In this document: positions 3,255 to 64,000 of the stretch, piece by piece
Layout of the letters: the number at the start of each line of letters is the position of its first letter
How positions within the stretch are numbered: the first letter of the stretch is position 1
From: a virus
Taxonomy: Duplodnaviria; Caudoviricetes
Virus record (IMG/VR): IMGVR_UViG_3300012952_000023
Span: 3,595 to 67,594 of that record
DNA: 64,000 bases
Reading direction: 5' to 3' (one strand)
Made by a program: the position numbers and the translations under genes
The notes under the pieces: generated by a model
The model's input: the letters and a program-made list of their open reading frames with translations, nothing else
What the model was told of the DNA's origin: nothing
Database searches by the model: none

Positions 3255-3890
3255 ATGGGATACAACTGGAATCAATTTAACGATCTGATTAATAACGACA
3301 AAACAGGCGTTAGGGGTAGGGTTATAGATGAGTATCTTGATCCTGAGAAGGTCTTGTCAAACGTCCCTGGTAGGGGTTGGTTTGGAGGATACCACGAAGG
3401 AGAAGGTAAAGGTATTGTCTTTGATTTAGAAAATGATAAGACCTTGAGAAATTATGCCAAACAACATGGCATTATCCGTATAGAAGATGATGGTGCAGGT
3501 AATATTACTCCTGTTTTCAAGAACGAAGGGGCTGCAAGGCGTTTTAATGAATTAAGAACTAAAGCAATCGAAGATCTTTCTAAAAATAAGATGACGTACG
3601 CTAATAGAAGTGACGATACATATGAGTCACCGGGAGAAAAATCACTAAGACAGAAAGCTGAATCATCAAAGAAAAGAGGTAGTATCGAGGACTTGCTTCA
3701 AGATGTGATTAGATCTGGCATTCCTCCTAAGCCTGGCGAATCGGGTTTTGAGGAATATAAAGAATGGTGGAGAGAAAAAGAGGACAGGAAAGACAAAAGA
3801 AGAATGGATGATTTAGGTGCTGCTCGTAAATGGTCAAACAGAAGAGGAGCGACTAATACTGTAGGTAAAGTCCTTCAGGCACTTATATAG
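3255..3890 (+). CDS. Hypothetical protein
   Basis: 211-aa ORF in operon context. Confidence 0.6.
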   Translation: MGYNWNQFNDLINNDKTGVRGRVIDEYLDPEKVLSNVPGRGWFGGYHEGEGKGIVFDLENDKTLRNYAKQHGIIRIEDDGAGNITPVFKNEGAARRFNELRTKAIEDLSKNKMTYANRSDDTYESPGEKSLRQKAESSKKRGSIEDLLQDVIRSGIPPKPGESGFEEYKEWWREKEDRKDKRRMDDLGAARKWSNRRGATNTVGKVLQALI

Positions 3891-19754: not shown

Positions 19755-20624
19755 ATGGCACGATTACCAAAAGGAGCAGATCCTTCTCAAATGAAAAGGC
19801 ATTCCCCCATTATGGGTAGATGGCAAAAAGATACATTAGTAGATACGGCAAATCCTTTAGTAGATACTTCCAAGGGTGGATGGGTTGTATCTGGACAGAA
19901 AGCTGAAGAAGTCAGAAGAAGTAATGCTACAGCTTTATTACAGCAGTATTCAACTACTGCCGACAAAGCTTCTACTGTAAAGAAACCTGACACTCAGCCA
20001 ATCTCTGACGGAGGTTTTTACGAGCAAGGAAATCCACCTGTCGGAAAAGTAGATTCGAACAGAAAAGCTTCTTTGAATTCAGACGCGTTCGGAAGCATAG
20101 AAGGATTCGAATCACGAGCTTCTAAAGGGGAGTATGGTACTGGAATTGAGACTCAGAATGTCGCATTAGAAACAGGAGTCACACTAGGTGATGCTGGTGT
20201 GCTGCCTGCTAACGGTGACGGGAATATGAGCAATTCCTCTAATCCTGCTACTAATGCTTTAAATTCAGCAGGTAAGATCAAACCACTACAAACAGCAGAT
20301 CAGGGTACATATAATTCTCCTCTAAAAGCTGATGCCGTAGCCTTCTTAAAGGCTAAGAAGCCCTCTACCAAAGGAATGAAGATAGATGGGGATCCAAATA
20401 TTACACCATTCCCTGGCTTTAATCCTATTCCCGGCTTAGAACCACCAGCGGAGAGAAGACGTAAGGATAAAGAAGGAAGGATCGGAAGAGGAGGAGAAAA
20501 ACCAATAGTCATTGGCAAGCCTTGGGAAGGTCCAGCTGAAGGTAGACCTGAGAAAGGAGGAAGGAATCGCAGAAAAGGAGGAATAGACTTTGGAAATATT
20601 ACGCCTTTCGGAGGTTTAATGTAA
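19755..20624 (+). CDS. Hypothetical protein
   Basis: GGAGG SD with ATG at 19755; basic Gly/Pro-rich tail. Confidence 0.6.
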   Translation: MARLPKGADPSQMKRHSPIMGRWQKDTLVDTANPLVDTSKGGWVVSGQKAEEVRRSNATALLQQYSTTADKASTVKKPDTQPISDGGFYEQGNPPVGKVDSNRKASLNSDAFGSIEGFESRASKGEYGTGIETQNVALETGVTLGDAGVLPANGDGNMSNSSNPATNALNSAGKIKPLQTADQGTYNSPLKADAVAFLKAKKPSTKGMKIDGDPNITPFPGFNPIPGLEPPAERRRKDKEGRIGRGGEKPIVIGKPWEGPAEGRPEKGGRNRRKGGIDFGNITPFGGLM

Positions 20625-21127
20625 TGTCTGACGTACCAGGTAAGCCTAAGCATCCAAAAAGTAGAGAGGAGGGGAAAGCTAGGAGGCCAGGTAGCTACGT
20701 GCCTGACTATATGAAGCATCGTTCGGGACCTATTAGAGCTACGAAATACAATGAATGGTATACAGACAAGAAAGCTGAAAGAAGTGCTGCAAGTGACCTA
20801 TCAGCTAGTCGAGGAGGAGTACCTAATAATCCAATGAATGTGAATTCATTCCGACCAGAGAATGACGTGGTAGCCAGAACGAATATGTATAGAGATGGCG
20901 AGCAGATAGCGACACAAGAAGGTCCAACAAGAACGCGACCTGATCAACGAGGACAGAGTTTTACTCCTCCTGTCCCTCAGGAGAAAGCAGGACGTGTGAA
21001 GCCTAACCCACCACCACGAGGTCTGAGCACTGCTCTAGGGGCTTTAGGTGCAGGTCCTCAGAGAGACGTCCCTCCCGTAGGAGAATCTCCTGATATCTGG
21101 AACGAAGGAGGAACGTTCCTTCAATAG
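20624..21127 (+). CDS. Hypothetical basic Pro-rich protein
   Basis: TAATG coupling to the upstream gene. Confidence 0.55.
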   Translation: MSDVPGKPKHPKSREEGKARRPGSYVPDYMKHRSGPIRATKYNEWYTDKKAERSAASDLSASRGGVPNNPMNVNSFRPENDVVARTNMYRDGEQIATQEGPTRTRPDQRGQSFTPPVPQEKAGRVKPNPPPRGLSTALGALGAGPQRDVPPVGESPDIWNEGGTFLQ

Positions 21128-52135: not shown

Positions 52136-52243
52136 ATGACACCCGAGGCAGAGAAGTTCAATGGCTGGTTAGCAATGCTTGGCGTTGTAGCAGGCATCGG
52201 AGCATACGCAACAACAGGACAACTCATCCCAGGAATCTTTTAA
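52136..52243 (+). CDS. hli: High-light-inducible protein (35 aa, not in ORF track)
   Basis: MTPEAEKFNGWLAMLG...TTGQLIPGIF. Confidence 0.93.
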   Translation: MTPEAEKFNGWLAMLGVVAGIGAYATTGQLIPGIF

Positions 52244-52247
52244 ATCA

Positions 52248-52367
52248 ATGAACGTATCTAACAAAACTATTTTCGAAAGAAGCATCGGCAGACCAGCAAT
52301 GATGGCTTTCGTTTTACTGACTAGTACTTACCTAGTTACAGGACAACTCATCCCTGGTATCGTTTAA
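52248..52367 (+). CDS. hli: HLIP-like protein (39 aa, divergent; not in ORF track)
   Basis: FERSIGRPAMMAF...TGQLIPGIV. Confidence 0.75.
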   Translation: MNVSNKTIFERSIGRPAMMAFVLLTSTYLVTGQLIPGIV

Positions 52368-52531
52368 TGAAATCTGAACAGCCTAATACTGTTGTCGGAA
52401 CAGAAACTCAAAGACTAGAAGAAGGCAAAATTTTTGCTGAAAGAGTGAACGGATATGCTGCCATCTTTGGATGTGCTGCTCTTATCACTGCTTACGCTAC
52501 AACTGGTCAAATTATCCCTGGTTTTGTTTAA
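52367..52531 (+). CDS. hli: High-light-inducible protein (54 aa, not in ORF track)
   Basis: AERVNGYAAIFG...TTGQIIPGFV; TAATG coupling. Confidence 0.88.
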   Translation: MKSEQPNTVVGTETQRLEEGKIFAERVNGYAAIFGCAALITAYATTGQIIPGFV

Positions 52532-52749
52532 TGACTTCATCTACTCAAGCCGTTGCACTAGAAAACACTGTTACTGAATACGGTAAGCAGAACATCTTTG
52601 GTAAAGAGACTCAACCACAGTTAGTCGAAGAGTATAAAGGCTATGTTCAAGAAGCTGAACTAGCTAACGGTCGCTGGGCAATGATCGGTTTTGTTGCTCT
52701 CATCGGAGCTTACTTGACTACTGGCCAAGTCCTCCCTGGCATCTTTTAA
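52531..52749 (+). CDS. hli: High-light-inducible protein (72 aa)
   Basis: AELANGRWAMIGF...TTGQVLPGIF; the true start is the TAATG-coupled ATG at 52531. Confidence 0.93.
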   Translation: MTSSTQAVALENTVTEYGKQNIFGKETQPQLVEEYKGYVQEAELANGRWAMIGFVALIGAYLTTGQVLPGIF

Positions 52750-56742: not shown

Positions 56743-57057
56743 CTATAGCGTGGTGCAACTATTTGTTCTCTTAATATCTCGAATCGTGCTGACGTGAACG
56801 CAGAACAAATCGGCAAGTTCTTGGTTGGTGTACCAATCCTTTGATTTGGCAATACTTTTCTTCTGAGCATCGGTGATTTTATGTGCTCCTCCACTCTTGC
56901 GGTCACTATCTTTTGCTAGTTGTTCATAGGTTATAAATTTATAACCACAGGAGCAGCGTCTTGTTCTTCTGGTAATTGTTCCTTTCTGTTTAGTTCTAAC
57001 TTCTGTAACAAATGTTTTACCTTTGAGTTGAAGAGCATTGCATTGAGGGCATCTCAT
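56743..57057 (-). CDS. NrdR-like zinc ribbon plus HTH protein
   Basis: MRCPQC...RRTRRCSCGYKFITYE; NQELADLFCVHVSTIRDIK; ATGA coupling. Confidence 0.7.
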   Translation of the reverse strand: MRCPQCNALQLKGKTFVTEVRTKQKGTITRRTRRCSCGYKFITYEQLAKDSDRKSGGAHKITDAQKKSIAKSKDWYTNQELADLFCVHVSTIRDIKRTNSCTTL

Positions 57058-57671
57058 TCCTTTTGAGCGTACTTGCAAATCCACTCGGGAAGTCTAGGGA
57101 TTGGCTTAGCTTCTTGTGGCATTACGAGGATAATGACATTATTGTCGTCAGTCTCCAGCCTTAAGGGGCCTCCATCAAATGCAGACATAATGATTGAAGA
57201 ATCAAAAGCGGATAGACCTTTAATTGCTTTTTGCAAATAGAGCTGGTCGTATCTGCCAGCTGTTTTCGATATTTCAGGTAAGGCTGTCCACCTACTAATA
57301 CAATCTCGAATTGCTTTTGCTAGATCAGGAAAATCGACTTGGCTTCTTTGAATAGATAATTCTTTAGCTTCGTTAGTGGTCTTTCTATAGGTCGTAACCA
57401 AGGCTGAATTGTCTGTAATACGTAATTCCCTTTCAGCAGTTTTAATTGGCTTACAGGCTGCTACGAGTTCTTTAGAAGGAATGATTTGAATAGACTCATC
57501 TGCTTGACCAGCAGGGTCATAAGCAAGGCAAGCAATATTACCTTTATCTGTAGAAGCAACGAAGACACCATTATCTACTCCAGCTGGAGATATCTGGACA
57601 GATTGAAATGGAGAGTATTTCCCAGTGAATTCTGCTGCAATAGAAACGAGAGCAGCTTTAAGCTGTAGCAT
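57054..57671 (-). CDS. Sliding clamp (beta-clamp)-like protein, truncated
   Basis: VFVASTDKG, DFPD, YLQKAI and GGPL...ILVMP resemble DnaN motifs. Confidence 0.5.
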   Translation of the reverse strand: MLQLKAALVSIAAEFTGKYSPFQSVQISPAGVDNGVFVASTDKGNIACLAYDPAGQADESIQIIPSKELVAACKPIKTAERELRITDNSALVTTYRKTTNEAKELSIQRSQVDFPDLAKAIRDCISRWTALPEISKTAGRYDQLYLQKAIKGLSAFDSSIIMSAFDGGPLRLETDDNNVIILVMPQEAKPIPRLPEWICKYAQKE

Positions 57672-57873
57672 TTTGCAGAGTGATCGACCCTGCAAGGTTA
57701 CTAGTTTTTTGAAGCCAATGCCAGCGCCAAGGAATATGTTGTTCAGCTAAACGAGTATTTGCCAGCTCTAATTCTTTAGCACCAATAGTTGGAGTCCACT
57801 TTTCATCGAGGACTTCGGCTGTAAATGAATGAACCATGATGGCTCTTTTTTGGATTGATTCTCGTTCTTCCAT
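57658..57873 (-). CDS. Hypothetical protein
   Basis: 71-aa ORF. Confidence 0.5.
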   Translation of the reverse strand: MEERESIQKRAIMVHSFTAEVLDEKWTPTIGAKELELANTRLAEQHIPWRWHWLQKTSNLAGSITLQNATA

Positions 57874-58115: not shown

Positions 58116-58751
58116 TTAGGTCGAGGCATCGACTGAGGTTAATCTTGTTTTATCTCCAAAAGGTAACGTGGGGAAGGTATTGAACGCAAGGCTTATCCTA
58201 TTAATACTGGACTGATTGGTTGGAACAAAGTGATCGATCAAACTAGAAAATATTAGAAGTGTCTTAGGTTCTGATTGATGGCTGTACACATCTATTGACG
58301 AAGGGATATGAAGATCCGTCAGATCGTATTTATTGGGGTGAACTTCTATGGAATAGTTATTTTTAGAAACAGGTGATTGAAAGCACAAAGGAGAATTGTT
58401 TTCTTGTGCTGAATTTAAGAATAAGACACCACTTAAAAAACTATTAGCGTGATAATGACTAGGATGTTTACCTCCTGAAGGACAGAAATTAATCCAAGAT
58501 TGTTGAATATCTAGGGATTGATCTGTATGTAAGACATCAAGTTGGTATTGATGTACTGATTGCAAACAGAATTCTTTCAAGTCTTTAAGTTGTTCGTCAT
58601 GGAGAACGCAGGAGTTTTCGGACTGTTGATTGAATCCAGTATCTTTGTATGCGAGCTGACTGGCGTAATCTACTACCGCTTCTATATCTCCTTGATATTT
58701 GAAAATACCTAAGGGAGGTACTGCGAACATAGTCTCGTATTGAGCGGTCAT
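58116..58751 (-). CDS. 2OG-Fe(II) oxygenase (TIGR02466-like)
   Basis: QSWINF...HPSHYHANSFLSGVLF, IFSSLIDHFVP and RISLAFN. Confidence 0.88.
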   Translation of the reverse strand: MTAQYETMFAVPPLGIFKYQGDIEAVVDYASQLAYKDTGFNQQSENSCVLHDEQLKDLKEFCLQSVHQYQLDVLHTDQSLDIQQSWINFCPSGGKHPSHYHANSFLSGVLFLNSAQENNSPLCFQSPVSKNNYSIEVHPNKYDLTDLHIPSSIDVYSHQSEPKTLLIFSSLIDHFVPTNQSSINRISLAFNTFPTLPFGDKTRLTSVDAST

Positions 58752-59419
58752 TTAAATAATGGAAGTTTGTTTGGGTTTGAACTACTTGATTCTTCTATAT
58801 TGAAAGAAAGGCTAATTCGTGGATTATTGCCTAAGTATGTTCTAACTCCGTGTTCTAAGTAAGAAGGAAATAAAATCATCGTCCCCTCTTCAGGCTTAAT
58901 AATTACTTGAGGACAGGGAAAACTAGTAGTAGCAGAGCATACATAATGACCAAAGACTGGAGTAGTGAAATATATCTCACCCCCTTCACCCCCCTCAGGT
59001 ATTGAATGATAATAAACACCAGATATTTGTGATGACATGTGTTGGTGTTGGTGAGCGTAATCATTATTTTCTAACTGAGTAATCCATGCTCCGTCGATGT
59101 GGCAATGACTAAACATTTTTGTTAATGATTTTTGGTCTGCGTGTGGAGAGCAGGATCTTAAGTATCTTTCTACTCCTTCTTTTATAACCGATTTAAATGC
59201 TGGTATTTTTTTGATTAAATCTAATATTCCTTGATCAGGTGCAAATGATTTGATAGATAACTTATGTGTTTTACCCCAGTTCGCCATATATTCCATATGA
59301 GCTGTCTCCAAGTAATCATTTATTTGATTGTTTAAATCTAGAAAATGTGTACTTGCTCCACTGATGTCGTAAGTGTAAATATTAGATGGGAATAATTGAG
59401 AAAAATATGATCTGTCCAT
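58748..59419 (-). CDS. 2OG-Fe(II) oxygenase (TIGR02466-like)
   Basis: AHQHQHMSSQISGVYY, PEEGTMILFPSYLEHGV and RISLSFN; start likely ATG 59419. Confidence 0.88.
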   Translation of the reverse strand: MDRSYFSQLFPSNIYTYDISGASTHFLDLNNQINDYLETAHMEYMANWGKTHKLSIKSFAPDQGILDLIKKIPAFKSVIKEGVERYLRSCSPHADQKSLTKMFSHCHIDGAWITQLENNDYAHQHQHMSSQISGVYYHSIPEGGEGGEIYFTTPVFGHYVCSATTSFPCPQVIIKPEEGTMILFPSYLEHGVRTYLGNNPRISLSFNIEESSSSNPNKLPLFK

Positions 59420-59462
59420 CGTTTTAAGAAGAATATAGCAAAGCTTTGCACAGGTTTCCAAT

Positions 59463-59494
59463 AAAAAACCCCCGTTGTTTCTACAACGAGGGTT
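59463..59494 (-). terminator. Terminator downstream of psbA
   Basis: AACCCTCGTTG-TAGAAA-CAACGGGGGTT followed by a T tract; a second imperfect hairpin lies at 59508-59540. Confidence 0.75.
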
Positions 59495-59548
59495 CTTTAC
59501 TCACCTGTTCACTCTCAGAGGTCATGCGGCCTCGAGTGAATCATATCA

Positions 59549-60634
59549 CTATCCAACAGAAGGAGCAACTAAAGCTACATCGGTAGCAGCAGTAGAAGCT
59601 AAATCAAGAGGGAAGTTGTGAGCGTTACGCTCGTGCATCACTTCCATACCAAGGTTTGCCCTGTTAAGGACGTCACCCCAGGTTGGTACAACTTTGCCTG
59701 AAGCATCTACAACAGATTGGTTAAAATTAAATCCGTTGAGGTTGAAGGCCATTGTGCATATACCCATTGAGGTAAGCCAAACACAAATAACAGGCCAAGA
59801 AGCAAGAAAAAAGTGAAGACTACGAGAGTTGTTAAACGAGGCGTATTGGAAGATAAGACGTCCGAAGTAACCATGTGCGGCGACGATGTTGTACGTCTCT
59901 TCCTCTTGTCCGAATTTGTAGCCATAGTTCTGAGAGTCTAATCCTGTGGTCTCTCTAATAAGAGAGGAGGTAACCAGTGAACCATGCATAGCACTAAACA
60001 AAGCACCACCAAACATACCCGCCACACCTGCCATGTGGAATGGATGCATGAGGATATTATGTTCCGCCTGAAAGACAAACATAAAGTTGAACGTGCCTGA
60101 AATGCCGAGAGGCATACCGTCACTGAATGATCCCTGTCCGAAAGGATAGACGAGGAATACAGCAAAAGCTGCGGATACCGGCGCTGAGTAAGCAACACAG
60201 ATCCAAGGCCTCATTCCTAGTCGATAACTAAGTTCCCATTGGCGTCCCATGTAAGCTGAGATACCGATGAGAAAGTGGAACACAACGAGTTGATATGGTC
60301 CTCCGTTATAGAGCCATTCGTCGATGGTTGCAGCTTCCCAGATTGGGTAGAAGTGAAGACCGATTGCGTTTGAGCTCGGTACGACGGCTCCTGAGATGAT
60401 GTTGTTCCCATAAAGAAATGAGCCTGCTACTGGCTCACGGATCCCGTCAATATCTACGGGAGGAGCAGCTATGAAAGCAATGATAAAACAAGTTGCTGCG
60501 GCAAGTAGACAAGGAACCATCAATACACCGAACCAACCGACATAAATACGGTTGTTGGTGGATGTTGTCCACTCACAGAACTCGTCCCATCCTTTCAATA
60601 CGCTGCCGCTTCTGTTTAAAGAAGAAGAAGTCAT
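59549..60634 (-). CDS. psbA: Photosystem II D1 protein (Prochlorococcus-type, Gln130), uninterrupted
   Basis: Full D1 sequence, including [23 protein letters not shown] and [13 protein letters not shown]. Confidence 0.99.
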
Positions 60635-60661
60635 TTAAGTAAAAGTACGATTTGTGAACTT

Positions 60662-60702
60662 GTATGATGAGAGACTTTAGCCCGTGGTCTCGGTTGGGGC
60701 TT
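60662..60702 (-). ncRNA. psbA 5' leader RNA element (PhotoRC-II-like)
   Basis: AGCCC-CAACC-GAGAC-CAC-GGGCT-AAA-GTCTC-TCATC, 5' of psbA. Confidence 0.65.
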
Positions 60703-60858
60703 GAGATATTACTCAAACTTAATGTTAGCAATAAAACACAATGCATATCTTACTTAAAGACTTTGAAACCTTATACAAAAAGGTAGTGATAGCCGCAGTT
60801 TTGAAGGAACTTGAGCTTGAAGTATTTGTCAGACTAATAGCAGTAATGAGAGGTTCTT

Positions 60859-61068
60859 ATGTTTTCTATGTATGATCAGTTCTTTTTCCCTCCCTTTCAA
60901 GGAGTCATTGTTGTTTCTGATTCTGAATTAAAAGATTTAAAAATAAAGAAGAAACAAAATGATTTATCTATTTTAAAAAAGAATAAGCTAGAACTTGAAG
61001 CAGCTATTTCTGAACTAGAGAACGAGATCAAAGCTCTTTCCCCAGCAGAAGAAGCAAAGGCTGCCTAA
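60859..61068 (+). CDS. Small coiled-coil protein of picocyanobacterial/cyanophage type
   Basis: MFSMYDQFFFPP...VIVVSDSEL... followed by a coiled coil. Confidence 0.6.
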   Translation: MFSMYDQFFFPPFQGVIVVSDSELKDLKIKKKQNDLSILKKNKLELEAAISELENEIKALSPAEEAKAA

Positions 61069-61093
61069 GCTGATAAATAGTTTTTATCGTTGC

Positions 61094-61891
61094 ATGGAAT
61101 TTAATACTCTGGATTTCACTAATGAAGGTAAATTTATCAAGGAAGGTTTTATAGGAGGAGCTTTTATTGACGAAGAAATATGTGACGGTTTAATTGAGTT
61201 CCATAAAGAAACCCCTGAAGGAATTATTGAGGATAAGATTAATCCTTCTACTGGTTACTTTGAAAGGGGAATAGCAAAGCAAGCTGGCACGATTGTTACC
61301 AGTGAAAAGGGAGTCACTGTTGATAAGAATGTTAAAGATTCGATGGATTTGAATTGTTGTATTTGGATGAAAGATTCTCGTGTGATTGAATACAGAAAAG
61401 CTTTACTTCGAATCATTGGTGAATATCGTAAGGAATTCCCAAGATGTAAAGCTTGTCAATCATGGGGTTTACATCCTTTAGCTTCTTTACAAATTCAGCA
61501 TTACAGACCAAGTGGTGGCTATTTTGATTGGCATACGGAATACAATGGTCCATTGGGTACGGATGGCTCGAGGCACTTAGTTTTTATGACTTATCTCAAC
61601 ACGGTTGAGGATGGAGGTGAAACAGGATGGTATCACCAAAAAATTAAAATTAAACCTAAGAAAGGTCTCACCGTAGTTTGGCCTGTCGATTGGACATATA
61701 CTCATCGTGGTTTCATTGCTCCTTCTGAAGATAAATATATTACGACAGGGTGGTTTGAATATACGAATAGCAATACAGAAGCACCAACGGAACCAAAGGA
61801 AGGACGACCTGATGAGACTCAAATGATTTTAAATACAGCGGTGGAAGATTTAATGCGTCAGATATCTCAGAAAGAACAAACATCTAATTGA
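61094..61891 (+). CDS. 2OG-Fe(II) oxygenase (prolyl-hydroxylase-like)
   Basis: QIQHYRPSGGYFDWHTE, RHLVFMTYLNTVEDGGET and VWPVDWTYTHRG. Confidence 0.88.
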   Translation: MEFNTLDFTNEGKFIKEGFIGGAFIDEEICDGLIEFHKETPEGIIEDKINPSTGYFERGIAKQAGTIVTSEKGVTVDKNVKDSMDLNCCIWMKDSRVIEYRKALLRIIGEYRKEFPRCKACQSWGLHPLASLQIQHYRPSGGYFDWHTEYNGPLGTDGSRHLVFMTYLNTVEDGGETGWYHQKIKIKPKKGLTVVWPVDWTYTHRGFIAPSEDKYITTGWFEYTNSNTEAPTEPKEGRPDETQMILNTAVEDLMRQISQKEQTSN

Positions 61892-62988
61892 GGATCTGGG
61901 GATTCTCTCAGTTGAGTCACACATTGTTCTTCGCATTCTGGATCAGCTAGATAGCATTCGCTTACACAACTGAAATATTCTTCCACAGGGTCGCAAGGAA
62001 TATCAATTTTCACAGCTGCTTGGCAAGTAGTATAAGACACTGCTATTACTTCGTAATCTAAATTATTTTGAGAGCAAAAAGTATCTAATGCTTGATATTC
62101 GTTTTCTTTCCAAGTCTCGTGAGCTATGAATTCGTCAAATATCAGAATTGTATTTTTATCTATAACAGATTTAGAGTGGTTTAAAGCACATAGTGTAGAA
62201 GAATAGAGGTCAGCATCGAAATGTAAGATTGATGCGAGAGGTCTAGTACCATTGAAAAAATCTGGCAAAGTATCTTCGAAGTTTCCTGAAATAAATGTTC
62301 CTCCTTGTATGTTGGGGATCTTCCCCTTGGCAGAAAAATCCCCTTTATTAAATTGATTCCAGGACTCAGGTAGACCAGTGAAATTATCGAAGCCAAATCC
62401 TTGCTTAAAACTCTTAACTAAGTATTTAAACGAGCCTCCTTCATATACCCCAAATTCATAGAAAGGTCTACTTGTAATACTTCTTTTTACTATCTCATCG
62501 TAAAAGAATTCTCTATGAAAAAAGAGATCAGGTATTTCAGGTAGGGTTAAGATCCATTCGAGTGACTCGAATAAGGGGTTTTTATCTGTATATTTTTTGA
62601 GTAATTGTTCATACAAAGTATGATCACCTTGATGCAGTTTTACTGCACTTAGGTGCATTAGAGCAGGGATATCGTTCTTCTTAATACTTAAACAATGTTC
62701 TAAGTGTTGGGAGGCTTGTTCTTTATCTTCTGATAATAAGAACAGATTCCAAATTGCATTTCTGTAATAAGGTCTTAGTTCTACCGCTTTACGAATCGAT
62801 TCTTTTGCTTCTTGGAATTTTCCTAGAGAAATTAGGATGGTTCCTAAATTGGAATAAGCCTCGGCAAAAGCAGGATCTAAACGAATAGCTTCACGAACAT
62901 GTTCTTCAGCTTGAGTGAAATTCTCAAGCTGTTTTAATTCGTTTGCTTTTAGATTTAACTGAAATGCTCGAGACTTTATTCCTAACAT
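61867..62988 (-). CDS. TPR plus class I SAM-dependent (TylF-like) methyltransferase with a Cys-rich C-terminal tag
   Basis: TPR (AIRLDPAFAEAYSNLG); EFGVYEGGS, GFDNFTGLPE, HFDADLYSST and IFDEF; tail DPVEEYFSCVSEC...CEEQC. Confidence 0.8.
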   Translation of the reverse strand: MLGIKSRAFQLNLKANELKQLENFTQAEEHVREAIRLDPAFAEAYSNLGTILISLGKFQEAKESIRKAVELRPYYRNAIWNLFLLSEDKEQASQHLEHCLSIKKNDIPALMHLSAVKLHQGDHTLYEQLLKKYTDKNPLFESLEWILTLPEIPDLFFHREFFYDEIVKRSITSRPFYEFGVYEGGSFKYLVKSFKQGFGFDNFTGLPESWNQFNKGDFSAKGKIPNIQGGTFISGNFEDTLPDFFNGTRPLASILHFDADLYSSTLCALNHSKSVIDKNTILIFDEFIAHETWKENEYQALDTFCSQNNLDYEVIAVSYTTCQAAVKIDIPCDPVEEYFSCVSECYLADPECEEQCVTQLRESPDPQLDVCSF

Positions 62989-62989
62989 T

Positions 62990-63127
62990 TCACCTAACAG
63001 GCTGACGTGTAACTCTTGTATATTTTACGTCGCCAATGGTCTTTTGATCTGTAATTTTATAGTAATTACACCCTCTCCAAGTGAGAGAGACACTATTGAA
63101 ATGACTGGTCTTTAAGGAAATGTTCAT
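62990..63127 (-). CDS. Possible 45-aa peptide with an LT(W)RG motif
   Basis: MNISLKTSHFNSVSLTWRGCNYYK..., the 3' half of ORF 62990..63250; no clear SD. Confidence 0.35.
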   Translation of the reverse strand: MNISLKTSHFNSVSLTWRGCNYYKITDQKTIGDVKYTRVTRQPVR

Positions 63128-63153
63128 GGTGATACAGTAGCGATTGTTACAAT
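63122..63153 (+). promoter_or_regulatory. NtcA box(es) overlapping a -10 element
   Basis: GTA-GCGATTGT-TAC at 63137-50 is a perfect GTA-N8-TAC and overlaps TACAAT at 63148-53; a second GTT-N8-TAC lies at 63122-35. Confidence 0.65.
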
Positions 63154-63164
63154 AAAGGAGAAAG

Positions 63165-63224
63165 CGTCGGACCGCAAGGTCGCAACCATCAACACCATAC
63201 GACGGGGGTGTTGCTGATTGGAGG
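63165..63224 (+). ncRNA. Glutamine-II (Downstream-peptide)-like riboswitch
   Basis: 5' CGTCG pairs with loop CGACG (63200-04); GACC-GCAA-GGTC hairpin; CAACACC/GGTGTTG stem; CCATACGACGGGG loop; ends on the GGAGG SD. Confidence 0.75.
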
Positions 63225-63230
63225 TTATCC

Positions 63231-63335
63231 ATGACTTGCTCTACTACCAAATCCGCTAAGAAGACAACAGTTTTGACTTATCGCGGAGTGAAGTACAACC
63301 AAGCCAAGATTTCTTGCGAAAGAATCGCAGCTTAA
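63231..63335 (+). CDS. DUF4278-like peptide (34 aa, not in ORF track)
   Basis: MTCSTTKSAKKTTVLTYRGVKYNQAKISCERIAA; LTYRGVKY signature; GGAGG SD 6 nt upstream. Confidence 0.8.
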   Translation: MTCSTTKSAKKTTVLTYRGVKYNQAKISCERIAA

Positions 63336-63355
63336 CAATTAGTTAAATAAGAAGT

Positions 63356-63384
63356 AGGAGGGCTTAGTCCCTCCTTTTCTTTTT
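63356..63384 (+). terminator. Rho-independent terminator
   Basis: AGGAGGG-CTTAGT-CCCTCCT followed by TTTCTTTTT. Confidence 0.8.
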
Positions 63385-63453
63385 GAGAGTAAGAAATAAA
63401 TTCGAATAAGCAGCAATAACAAGAAGGACTAGTAAAAAAGTATTGATTGTCAT
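63364..63453 (-). CDS. Small single-TM peptide with a basic tail (29 aa, not in ORF track)
   Basis: MTINTFLLVLLVIAAYSNLFLTLKKKRRD; ATGA overlap with the upstream stop. Confidence 0.5.
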   Translation of the reverse strand: MTINTFLLVLLVIAAYSNLFLTLKKKRRD

Positions 63454-63686
63454 TCACCTATACCATCCAGCCAAATACATTGCATTTTGACTTGTTTAAT
63501 AAAGTCGTGATAACAGAGACCACGATCAATACCAGCAGTTACTCCTAACCATTTCAAATCCTGTTTAAAGCAGGCAGATAAATACTCGGCCTTGTCTCTT
63601 TCCATTCGAATGGTGACCCAATCTTTTCCTGAAAAAGGATTCTTCGTTGGAGCTGGGTTAATTTCTACACTATTTTTGTTCTTCAT
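63450..63686 (-). CDS. Hypothetical protein
   Basis: 78-aa coupled ORF. Confidence 0.5.
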   Translation of the reverse strand: MKNKNSVEINPAPTKNPFSGKDWVTIRMERDKAEYLSACFKQDLKWLGVTAGIDRGLCYHDFIKQVKMQCIWLDGIGE

Positions 63687-64000
63687 GCTTCTATCCTTAA
63701 TGCAGTTTCGTTTAGATATATAACTAATTCACCTCCATCTATTATTCTGTCCAGTTGTTCTTTTGTTAAAGGTATTGACTCTGCGAAATCATCACCGCTG
63801 ACTCTGTGTGTTTTTTCCCAAAGAGTGTCTTTATTAGCTTCTGTTGGTTTGTATCCAACAGCATAAGAGACAAGGGAAGAATCTCTCTTAAAGGCACTCA
63901 TAATGTAAATACCTTCGTCTTTAACAAGCCAGAAACTTTTGTCAGAACTGTAAGCATCTTGGAAAGGAATTTTAAACTTTTTATGTACGAGTGTTTCTCT
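63683..64000 (-). CDS. DUF3085-like protein, 5'-truncated by the window edge
   Basis: The frame is open from 64000: FWLVKDEGIYIMS...VSYAVGY.P...W...SGDDFAESI. Confidence 0.7.
   Translation of the reverse strand, partial: RETLVHKKFKIPFQDAYSSDKSFWLVKDEGIYIMSAFKRDSSLVSYAVGYKPTEANKDTLWEKTHRVSGDDFAESIPLTKEQLDRIIDGGELVIYLNETALRIEA

Follow-up and report, generated by a model that had tools for sequence, protein, structure and literature searches.

Can a virus of marine cyanobacteria read the nitrogen status of the cell that it infects? The question is raised by a short plus-strand segment near the end of the window, that is, the whole 64,000-nucleotide (nt) stretch of DNA analysed here (positions 3,595 to 67,594 of the IMG/VR virus record IMGVR_UViG_3300012952_000023), in which an earlier, sequence-only reading had seen a complete nitrogen-sensing module formed by an NtcA box, a glutamine riboswitch, a DUF4278 peptide and a terminator. 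The perfect GTA-N8-TAC overlapping a TACAAT hexamer, the pseudoknotted leader, the GGAGG Shine-Dalgarno (SD) sequence, the 34-amino-acid (aa) open reading frame (ORF) with LTYRGVKY and the terminator are all present where that reading had placed them (Table 1). The analysis described below leads to the view that positions 63120-63385 are very probably a self-contained, host-derived transcription unit of approximately 220 nt, made of a riboswitch, a YRG peptide with a strong SD sequence and a terminator, the expression and glutamine control of which are predicted.

In a permissive Rfam scan the leader matches the Glutamine-II model (RF01704) over its full length with a score of 27.1 bits, which corresponds to an E-value of 9.8e-5 locally and of 3.5e-6 over the 67.6-kb record. 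The match to this model that had been anticipated was therefore obtained, although below the gathering score of 33 bits, and for that reason a default scan reports nothing at the locus. According to the crystal structure of the Glutamine-II aptamer, in which the nucleotides conserved in more than 97% of the sequences and those in contact with glutamine are listed, three helices, P1, the pseudoknot (PK) and P2, are coaxially stacked (Huang 2019, PMC6698751). The window shares the P1-PK-P2 arrangement and the long-range C19:G41 pair, and keeps all the pocket nucleotides: C1, G2, U3, G18, C19, A33, A38, C39, G40, G41 and G42 in crystal numbering, at positions 63165-63167, 63182-63183, 63197 and 63202-63206. 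What differs is confined to a few places. The pairs U4:A37 and C5:G36, the only pseudoknot pairs given as not conserved in the crystal paper (PMC6698751), are replaced by C:G and G:C, respectively; G35, the third partner of the U4:A37 triple, is replaced by A, so that C4:G37 with A35 stands for U4:A37 with G35; and A6 is replaced by G, so that G6:C17 now pairs and extends P1, whereas A6:C17 is not hydrogen-bonded in the crystal (PMC6698751). The loop of P1, GCAA in the window, differs as well. A start codon follows 17 nt after P2 and opens an ORF with the YRG motif, and 10 other loci, which vary in the upstream flank and the ORF, share the aptamer core (63165-63207) with the window letter for letter. 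Judged by its sequence, the leader belongs to the type-2 glutamine riboswitch aptamers, and ligand binding is predicted for it.

The pseudoknot strands CGTCG/CGACG had been noticed as a departure from the usual CGTTC/GAACG and had been taken for compensatory variation. A degenerate pattern of the aptamer core, in which the variable pseudoknot positions were left free, matched at least 119 stretches of IMG/VR. Among the matches listed, four complementary combinations occur: CGTTC/GAACG in 109 (the canonical viral copies), CGTCG/CGACG in two (the window and locus L091), CGTCA/TGACG in two (L044 and L080) and CGTTT/AAACG in two (L034 and L113). In total, the pseudoknot is fully complementary in 115 of the 120 matches listed, almost all of which are followed by a YRG peptide, while the five non-complementary ones (L049, L051, L096, L097 and one more) have no such peptide and were discarded as chance matches. 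Over 73 distinct viral aptamers, 97.6% of the alignment cells are standard pairs and 10 of the 18 pairs change on both sides; in these figures, P1 and P2 provide an independent test and pseudoknot pairs 4 and 5 do not, because complementarity was demanded there in the selection. None of 500 shuffles reached the observed pairing and covariation values, slid registers were far off too, and the row of the window pairs everywhere except at the outermost P2 pair. This comparison identifies the change from CGUUC/GAACG to CGUCG/CGACG as truly compensatory, as had been proposed.

Within the subfamily to which the window belongs, three relatives pass the RF01704 cut-off (L141 with 37.7, L121 with 34.1 and L137 with 33.7 bits). 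The low score of the window copy is plausibly due, in part, to the Rfam model, in which both strands of the pseudoknot count as fixed sequence without pairing and paired changes are penalised; the cut-off misses real Glutamine-II members. Every aptamer with C4:G37 (63168 and 63201 in the window; also L044, L080, L121 and L141) has A at position 35 (63199 in the window), a co-change that counts as a single event because all its carriers form one clade. A pattern specific for C4:G37, scanned over IMG/VR, metagenomes and a genome collection of 185,579 species, was found in four viral contigs of 44-75 kb in IMG/VR and in 17 true members in the metagenomes; in the species collection it matched no cyanobacterium, but GC-rich chance sequences plus one mis-binned phage contig, and therefore no donor was identified. 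Two viral records of the subfamily have terminases 85-86% identical to that of the window, and the variant can therefore be assigned to a single group of related phages. The 5' strand of the pseudoknot and the start of the peptide separate four lineages: lineage 1 (the window, L091 and L127; CGTCG, MTCST…), lineage 2 (L044 and L080; CGTCA, MAATT…), lineage 3 (the L121 type; CGTCG, MSNSAVC…) and lineage 4 (L141; CGTCG, MDQTR…).

Two of these contigs deserve separate mention. L127 (CAXFIU010000016.1, 29.6 kb), binned in a metagenome-assembled genome named 'Candidatus Poseidoniales archaeon', carries the cassette too, together with a psbA that shares 99% identity with that of the window, and looks like a mis-binned contig of the window's phage type. 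The record with locus L121 (G002, IMGVR_UViG_2716884763_000001, 56.2 kb), whose terminase is 86% identical, is classed as 'provirus' in IMG/VR and has as its source a numbered IMG genome and not a metagenome, an origin that could point to the host or to an infected single cell.

The ORF downstream of the aptamer encodes a peptide in which residues 15-22 (LTYRGVKY) carry the motif L-x-Y-R-G-x-x-Y and which ends 12 residues later. Its assignment to DUF4278 (PF14105) had been suggested, and the comparison with profiles bears it out only up to a point: DUF4278 is the only Pfam family that the peptide matches (E 0.0064), but the match covers only profile positions 3-12 of 57, and its 17.3 bits fall short of the gathering score of 25.3 bits. 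Of 32 related viral peptides, 11 match this profile with E<0.01, the best with 3.9e-5. M1 and the Y, R, G and Y of the motif do not vary among 37 viral peptides, which come from several phage groups; the substitutions in lineage 1 are distributed over codon positions 1/2/3 as 26/8/57; and the peptides of the different lineages differ in length by whole codons. For these three reasons the ORF is regarded as coding, and a GGAG is found at the position of the SD sequence in lineages 2, 3 and 4 as well. An exact look-up in a collection of 15 billion proteins found neither the 34-aa peptide nor four other peptides of the subfamily, which fits the earlier remark that gene callers miss the ORF, and tblastn with the 34-aa peptide gave no match. 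Downstream of the YRG peptide, at the place that the terminator occupies in the window, several relatives have a second micro-ORF (28-33 aa; MNNLxLIRxR..R..RLHDAQL; Table 1).

Upstream of the aptamer, the sequence that precedes the promoter/operator block varies, the block being more conserved than its flanks. A -10-like hexamer is located 9-13 nt before the aptamer in all four lineages and is extended by TG in lineages 1, 2 and 4 (the relatives have TGtTATGAT in lineage 2 and TACAAT in lineage 3); this spacing fits a start at the edge of the aptamer, and we infer that transcription would begin near 63159-63161. At the other end of the unit, the same terminator is found in the lineage-1 relatives and a different one occupies the same place in the L121 type; the terminator of the window scores on the minus strand too, and terminator-like sites in the region number four vs 0.5 expected. 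Between the -10 and the aptamer, the window also has an SD-like AAGGAG (63155-63160), which is not followed by a start codon and is absent in lineages 2 to 4.

On the notion that NtcA controls this promoter, the evidence is divided. To judge from the sequence, the position of the perfect box is that of a repressor site, overlapping the -10 rather than lying at -41.5, and cyanomyovirus genomes had already been predicted to contain NtcA sites (PMC3037559). The opposing explanation is that the riboswitch and the peptide are real but the promoter lies outside NtcA control: the box would be a host relic, or a by-product of the -10 and its neighbouring bases, transcription would be constitutive or follow the phage programme, and glutamine would be the sole nitrogen signal. 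Such an explanation has difficulty with the fact that GTA and TAC persist around four different N8 spacers, GCGATTGT in lineage 1, GCGGTTGT in L141, TCTGTTTA in lineage 2 (L044/L080) and TATTTCGA in L137 of lineage 3; that in lineage 2 the box is located 9 nt farther upstream, with its TAC outside the -10; that the 35-nt promoter block is more conserved than its flanks; and that the host homologue is similarly arranged. It is favoured, on the other hand, by several observations that weigh against NtcA control. The box is shortened to GTA-N6-TAC (L121, L138, L139 and L154) or absent (L128, L136 and L150) in seven of the eight lineage-3 loci, and yet the aptamer, the SD sequence and the peptide are kept; no box is present within 100 nt of approximately 90 canonical viral copies, which directly follow the stop codon of the upstream gene; the TAC of the box is also required for the -10; and GTA-N8-TAC is common in the window (17 copies vs 11.1 +/- 3.0 expected), from which the chance of finding one within 40 nt of the aptamer is approximately 1%. 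The second, imperfect GTT-N8-TAC that the sequence-only reading had included is indeed present, but it is not conserved (its spacer has 9 nt at the lineage 2 site, and lineage 3 lacks the box), and it was dropped as an NtcA site. What survives of the NtcA claim is a box at a repressor position that several relatives keep, and its loss or shortening in most lineage-3 relatives makes the control only plausible. The chances that NtcA represses the cassette promoter, as predicted, appear evenly balanced, and a promoter outside its control has a considerable, though less than even, probability.

Two other explanations call into question the peptide or the element as a whole. The product could be a small structured RNA (a Yfr6-like regulator or a glutamine sponge), with the ORF as a merely translated leader and the peptide without a role. 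This would agree with the first description of the host homologue as the non-coding RNA Yfr6, with the poor conservation of the peptide outside L.YRG..Y (mean column identity of 26%) and with a hint in Weinberg 2010 that the conserved residues may be regulatory; nevertheless, the residues invariant in several phage groups, the third-codon-position bias, the whole-codon insertions and deletions, the strong SD sequence and the translation of reporter fusions of the host element make it quite unlikely. As for the element itself, the two scores under the Rfam and Pfam cut-offs count against it, and so do the aptamers of lineage 2, which fail to reach E 0.01 against RF01704, and a simple sigma-70 scan, in which neither a -35/-10 pair nor a canonical -35 was found. 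The folding energy of the leader is not unusual (z -0.52), and folding of the four lineages, with the pseudoknot strands free or blocked, gave no shared helix that sequesters the SD sequence, only small lineage-specific hairpins of the SD sequence and the AUG. The sub-threshold scores and the unexceptional folding energy are what would be expected if the resemblance were due to chance or if the element were a decayed, non-functional remnant derived from a host. This reading is disfavoured, and indeed highly improbable, in view of the E-value for the genome, the intact pocket, the compensatory nature of the pseudoknot and P1 changes, the identity of the core amid a varying flank and ORF, and the relatives that exceed the Rfam cut-off.

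By analogy with the element of Prochlorococcus MED4, glutamine would bind in the groove of the pseudoknot, stabilising both the CGUCG:CGACG helix and the long-range C:G pair, and the glutamine-bound aptamer would turn the translation of the peptide ON. Host NtcA might in addition, with a probability no better and no worse than even, shut the extended -10 promoter at high 2-oxoglutarate, given the overlap of GTA-N8-TAC with the -10. Synthesis of the peptide would in that case be restricted to host cells replete with nitrogen. In other words, if the switch works like its host counterpart, the phage would read the glutamine of the host, and perhaps its 2-oxoglutarate via NtcA, to decide on the synthesis of a tiny protein.

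The module that combines an NtcA site, a type-2 riboswitch and a DUF4278 peptide has already been published for Prochlorococcus MED4, and the design is copied from the host. The Yfr6/DUF4278 gene of MED4 (WP_071812974) has a perfect NtcA site over its start and a type-2 riboswitch that behaved as an ON switch in reporter assays (Klahn 2018, PMC6212724), so that the host precedent to which the sequence-only reading appealed does exist. Both elements are small monocistronic units in which a perfect NtcA-type site covers the start region, the leader is a Glutamine-II aptamer and a short YRG/DUF4278-like peptide is encoded. The window copy differs from that of MED4 in being phage-borne, in its pairs 4 and 5 (C:G and G:C, not U:A and C:G), in having A35 and G6 instead of G35 and A6, in scoring below the Rfam cut-off and in being known here from sequence.

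Phages carry canonical copies as well. A blastn search located the canonical aptamer, without any annotated feature, in 23 records of T7-like cyanopodoviruses. In P-SSP7 (NC_006882.2, approximately 20522-20645; L156:1506-1629) a Glutamine-II aptamer of 48.1 bits is followed by an unannotated 17-aa YRG ORF, MKVTFVYRGVAYTRVIG, and both are contained in a gap of 306 nt that separates PSSP7_028, which comes after hliP-psbA, from the major head gene gp10. These copies resemble that of the window in the phage-borne RF01704 aptamer, the tiny YRG peptide and the nearby psbA; in contrast to the window copy, which stands alone with its own promoter and terminator, they form part of an operon in which they directly follow an ORF and precede the major head gene, without NtcA box and with CGUUC/GAACG. 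The description of the module as complete is justified in so far as the unit is self-contained, but its novelty was oversold, since the host design is published and canonical copies are common in cyanopodoviruses.

Other glutamine-sensing systems are more distant. The gifB gene of Synechocystis, which encodes IF17, has a comparable logic of NtcA repression and a glutamine-activated leader, and the N terminus of its product is homologous to DUF4278; unlike the unit of the window, it has a type-1 aptamer (glnA RNA, RF01739), and IF17 has the IF7-like C-terminal part, which inactivates glutamine synthetase and which the 34-aa peptide lacks. Type-1 glutamine riboswitches have been described from T4-like cyanophages and from pelagiphage and methylophage genomes (PMC9964418, PMC9004378, PMC5473149); they have phage-encoded glutamine sensing in common with the window and differ from it in aptamer class, phage groups and downstream genes. 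A survey from 2017, in which cyanophage genomes yielded only two glutamine aptamers, came to the conclusion that phages rarely use riboswitches, and in the literature no paper was found that describes type-2 glutamine riboswitches in phages.

With regard to the function of the peptide, the sequence-only reading had envisaged a modulator of glutamine synthetase or nitrogen metabolism. DUF4278 corresponds to the N-terminal part of IF17, which is dispensable for the inactivation of glutamine synthetase (PMC6316151), and the short picocyanobacterial DUF4278 proteins have no IF7-like C-terminal region, the one that interacts with the enzyme (PMC6212724, PMC6316151). Because the match of the peptide is confined to this dispensable part and the IF7-like region is absent, a role in the control of glutamine synthetase is not supported, and inactivation of the enzyme in the manner of IF7/IF17 is unlikely. 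No newer functional paper on these peptides was found in the literature.

If the proposed control is true, it would provide a direct molecular link between the nitrogen supply of the ocean and the infection physiology of its most abundant phototrophs. The variant pseudoknot and its triple offer a natural test of the crystal-structure model, and YRG peptides, which are numerous in hosts and phages, gain weight from a phage copy under the same control. The gain is incremental, however, because the design is published for Prochlorococcus and glutamine riboswitches of phages have already been reported. A bolder proposal, which we consider rather unlikely, is that S-EIVl-like marine cyanophages possess a lineage-specific aptamer variant in which A35-G37:C4 stands as a unit for the triple G35-A37:U4, which no cellular genome of the scan contained and which perhaps has a different glutamine threshold; that together with NtcA it gates a micropeptide that rewires the nitrogen metabolism of the host; and that, with the copies of the P-SSP7 type, glutamine sensing is a common and overlooked input in cyanophages. 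Were glutamine sensing common in them, this would be contrary to the published view that phages rarely use riboswitches.

Table 1. Features of the cassette and its surroundings (positions in the window, unless a locus is named).
Feature	Position	Strand	Remarks
Conserved promoter/operator block ATGTTCATGGTGATACAGTAGCGATTGTTACAATA	63120-63154	+	nearly invariant in six lineage-1 variants and L141
Second, imperfect box GTT-N8-TAC	63122-63135	+	
Perfect NtcA-type box GTAgcgattgtTAC	63137-63150	+	GTA-N8-TAC; centred at about -16.5 from the presumed start; binding predicted
Extended -10 TGtTACAAT	63145-63153	+	TG 63145-63146, TACAAT 63148-63153; TAC shared with the NtcA-type box
Glutamine-II (RF01704) aptamer	63162-63214	+	full-length model match, permissive Rfam scan
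Pseudoknot of aptamer	63165-63169 with 63200-63204	+	CGTCG with CGACG
P1 of aptamer	63170-63173 with 63178-63181	+	GCAA loop
Long-range pair of aptamer	C63183:G63205	+	C19:G41 in crystal numbering
P2 of aptamer	63190-63196 with 63207-63213	+	
SD sequence GGAGG	63220-63224	+	6 nt before ATG
34-aa micropeptide ORF MTCSTTKSAKKTTVLTYRGVKYNQAKISCERIAA	63231-63335	+	ATG start; DUF4278-like YRG peptide
Intrinsic terminator	63356-63385	+	GC-rich hairpin 63356-63375, 7 bp, 5 GC, then a T run (TTTTCTTTTT)
TPR/TylF-type methyltransferase	61867-62988	-	flanking gene; auxiliary-gene island
Minus-strand gene	63450-63686	-	other flank; DUF3085 gene also on that flank
2OG-Fe(II) oxygenase 1	58116-58751	-	auxiliary-gene island
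2OG-Fe(II) oxygenase 2	58748-59461	-	auxiliary-gene island
psbA	59549-60634	-	auxiliary-gene island
2OG-Fe(II) oxygenase 3	61094-61891	+	auxiliary-gene island
Four tandem hli-like ORFs	52136-52749		farther upstream of the island
Second micro-ORF, L044	3124-3222	-	
Second micro-ORF, L131	7938-8036	+	
Second micro-ORF, L141	2136-2222	+	
Second micro-ORF, L128	1530-1613	-	

The genome that harbours the cassette is an IMG/VR virus of 67.6 kb, of which the window covers 64 kb. It encodes phage proteins (large terminase, virion protein, tail fibre and primase-helicase), its large terminase (TerL) shares 49.5% identity with the one of Synechococcus phage S-EIVl, to which no other isolate comes near as a relative, and it has psbA, hli ORFs and 2-oxoglutarate-Fe(II) (2OG-Fe(II)) oxygenases. 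From this set of structural and replication proteins, the S-EIVl-like TerL, psbA, the oxygenases and hli, the genome is recognised by its gene content as that of a genuine cyanophage related to S-EIVl, and the presence of a near-identical contig in a Tara Oceans run indicates that the phage is marine. The S-EIVl genome itself gave no RF01704 match and no copy of the cassette was found in it; blastn of positions 62000-64000 against isolated phages gave no match.

The cassette is a plus-strand unit flanked by minus-strand genes and is surrounded by an auxiliary-gene island, of which psbA, the three oxygenases and the methyltransferase occupy 58116-62988. Two minus-strand ORFs that run across it, 62990-63250 (86 aa) and 63225-63338, were rejected as genes; they belong to no family, and the relatives conserve only the aptamer part. 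In lineages 2 and 3 the cassette adjoins a homologue of the window gene at 57054-57695, from which it follows that approximately 5 kb of the island of the window is variable cargo.

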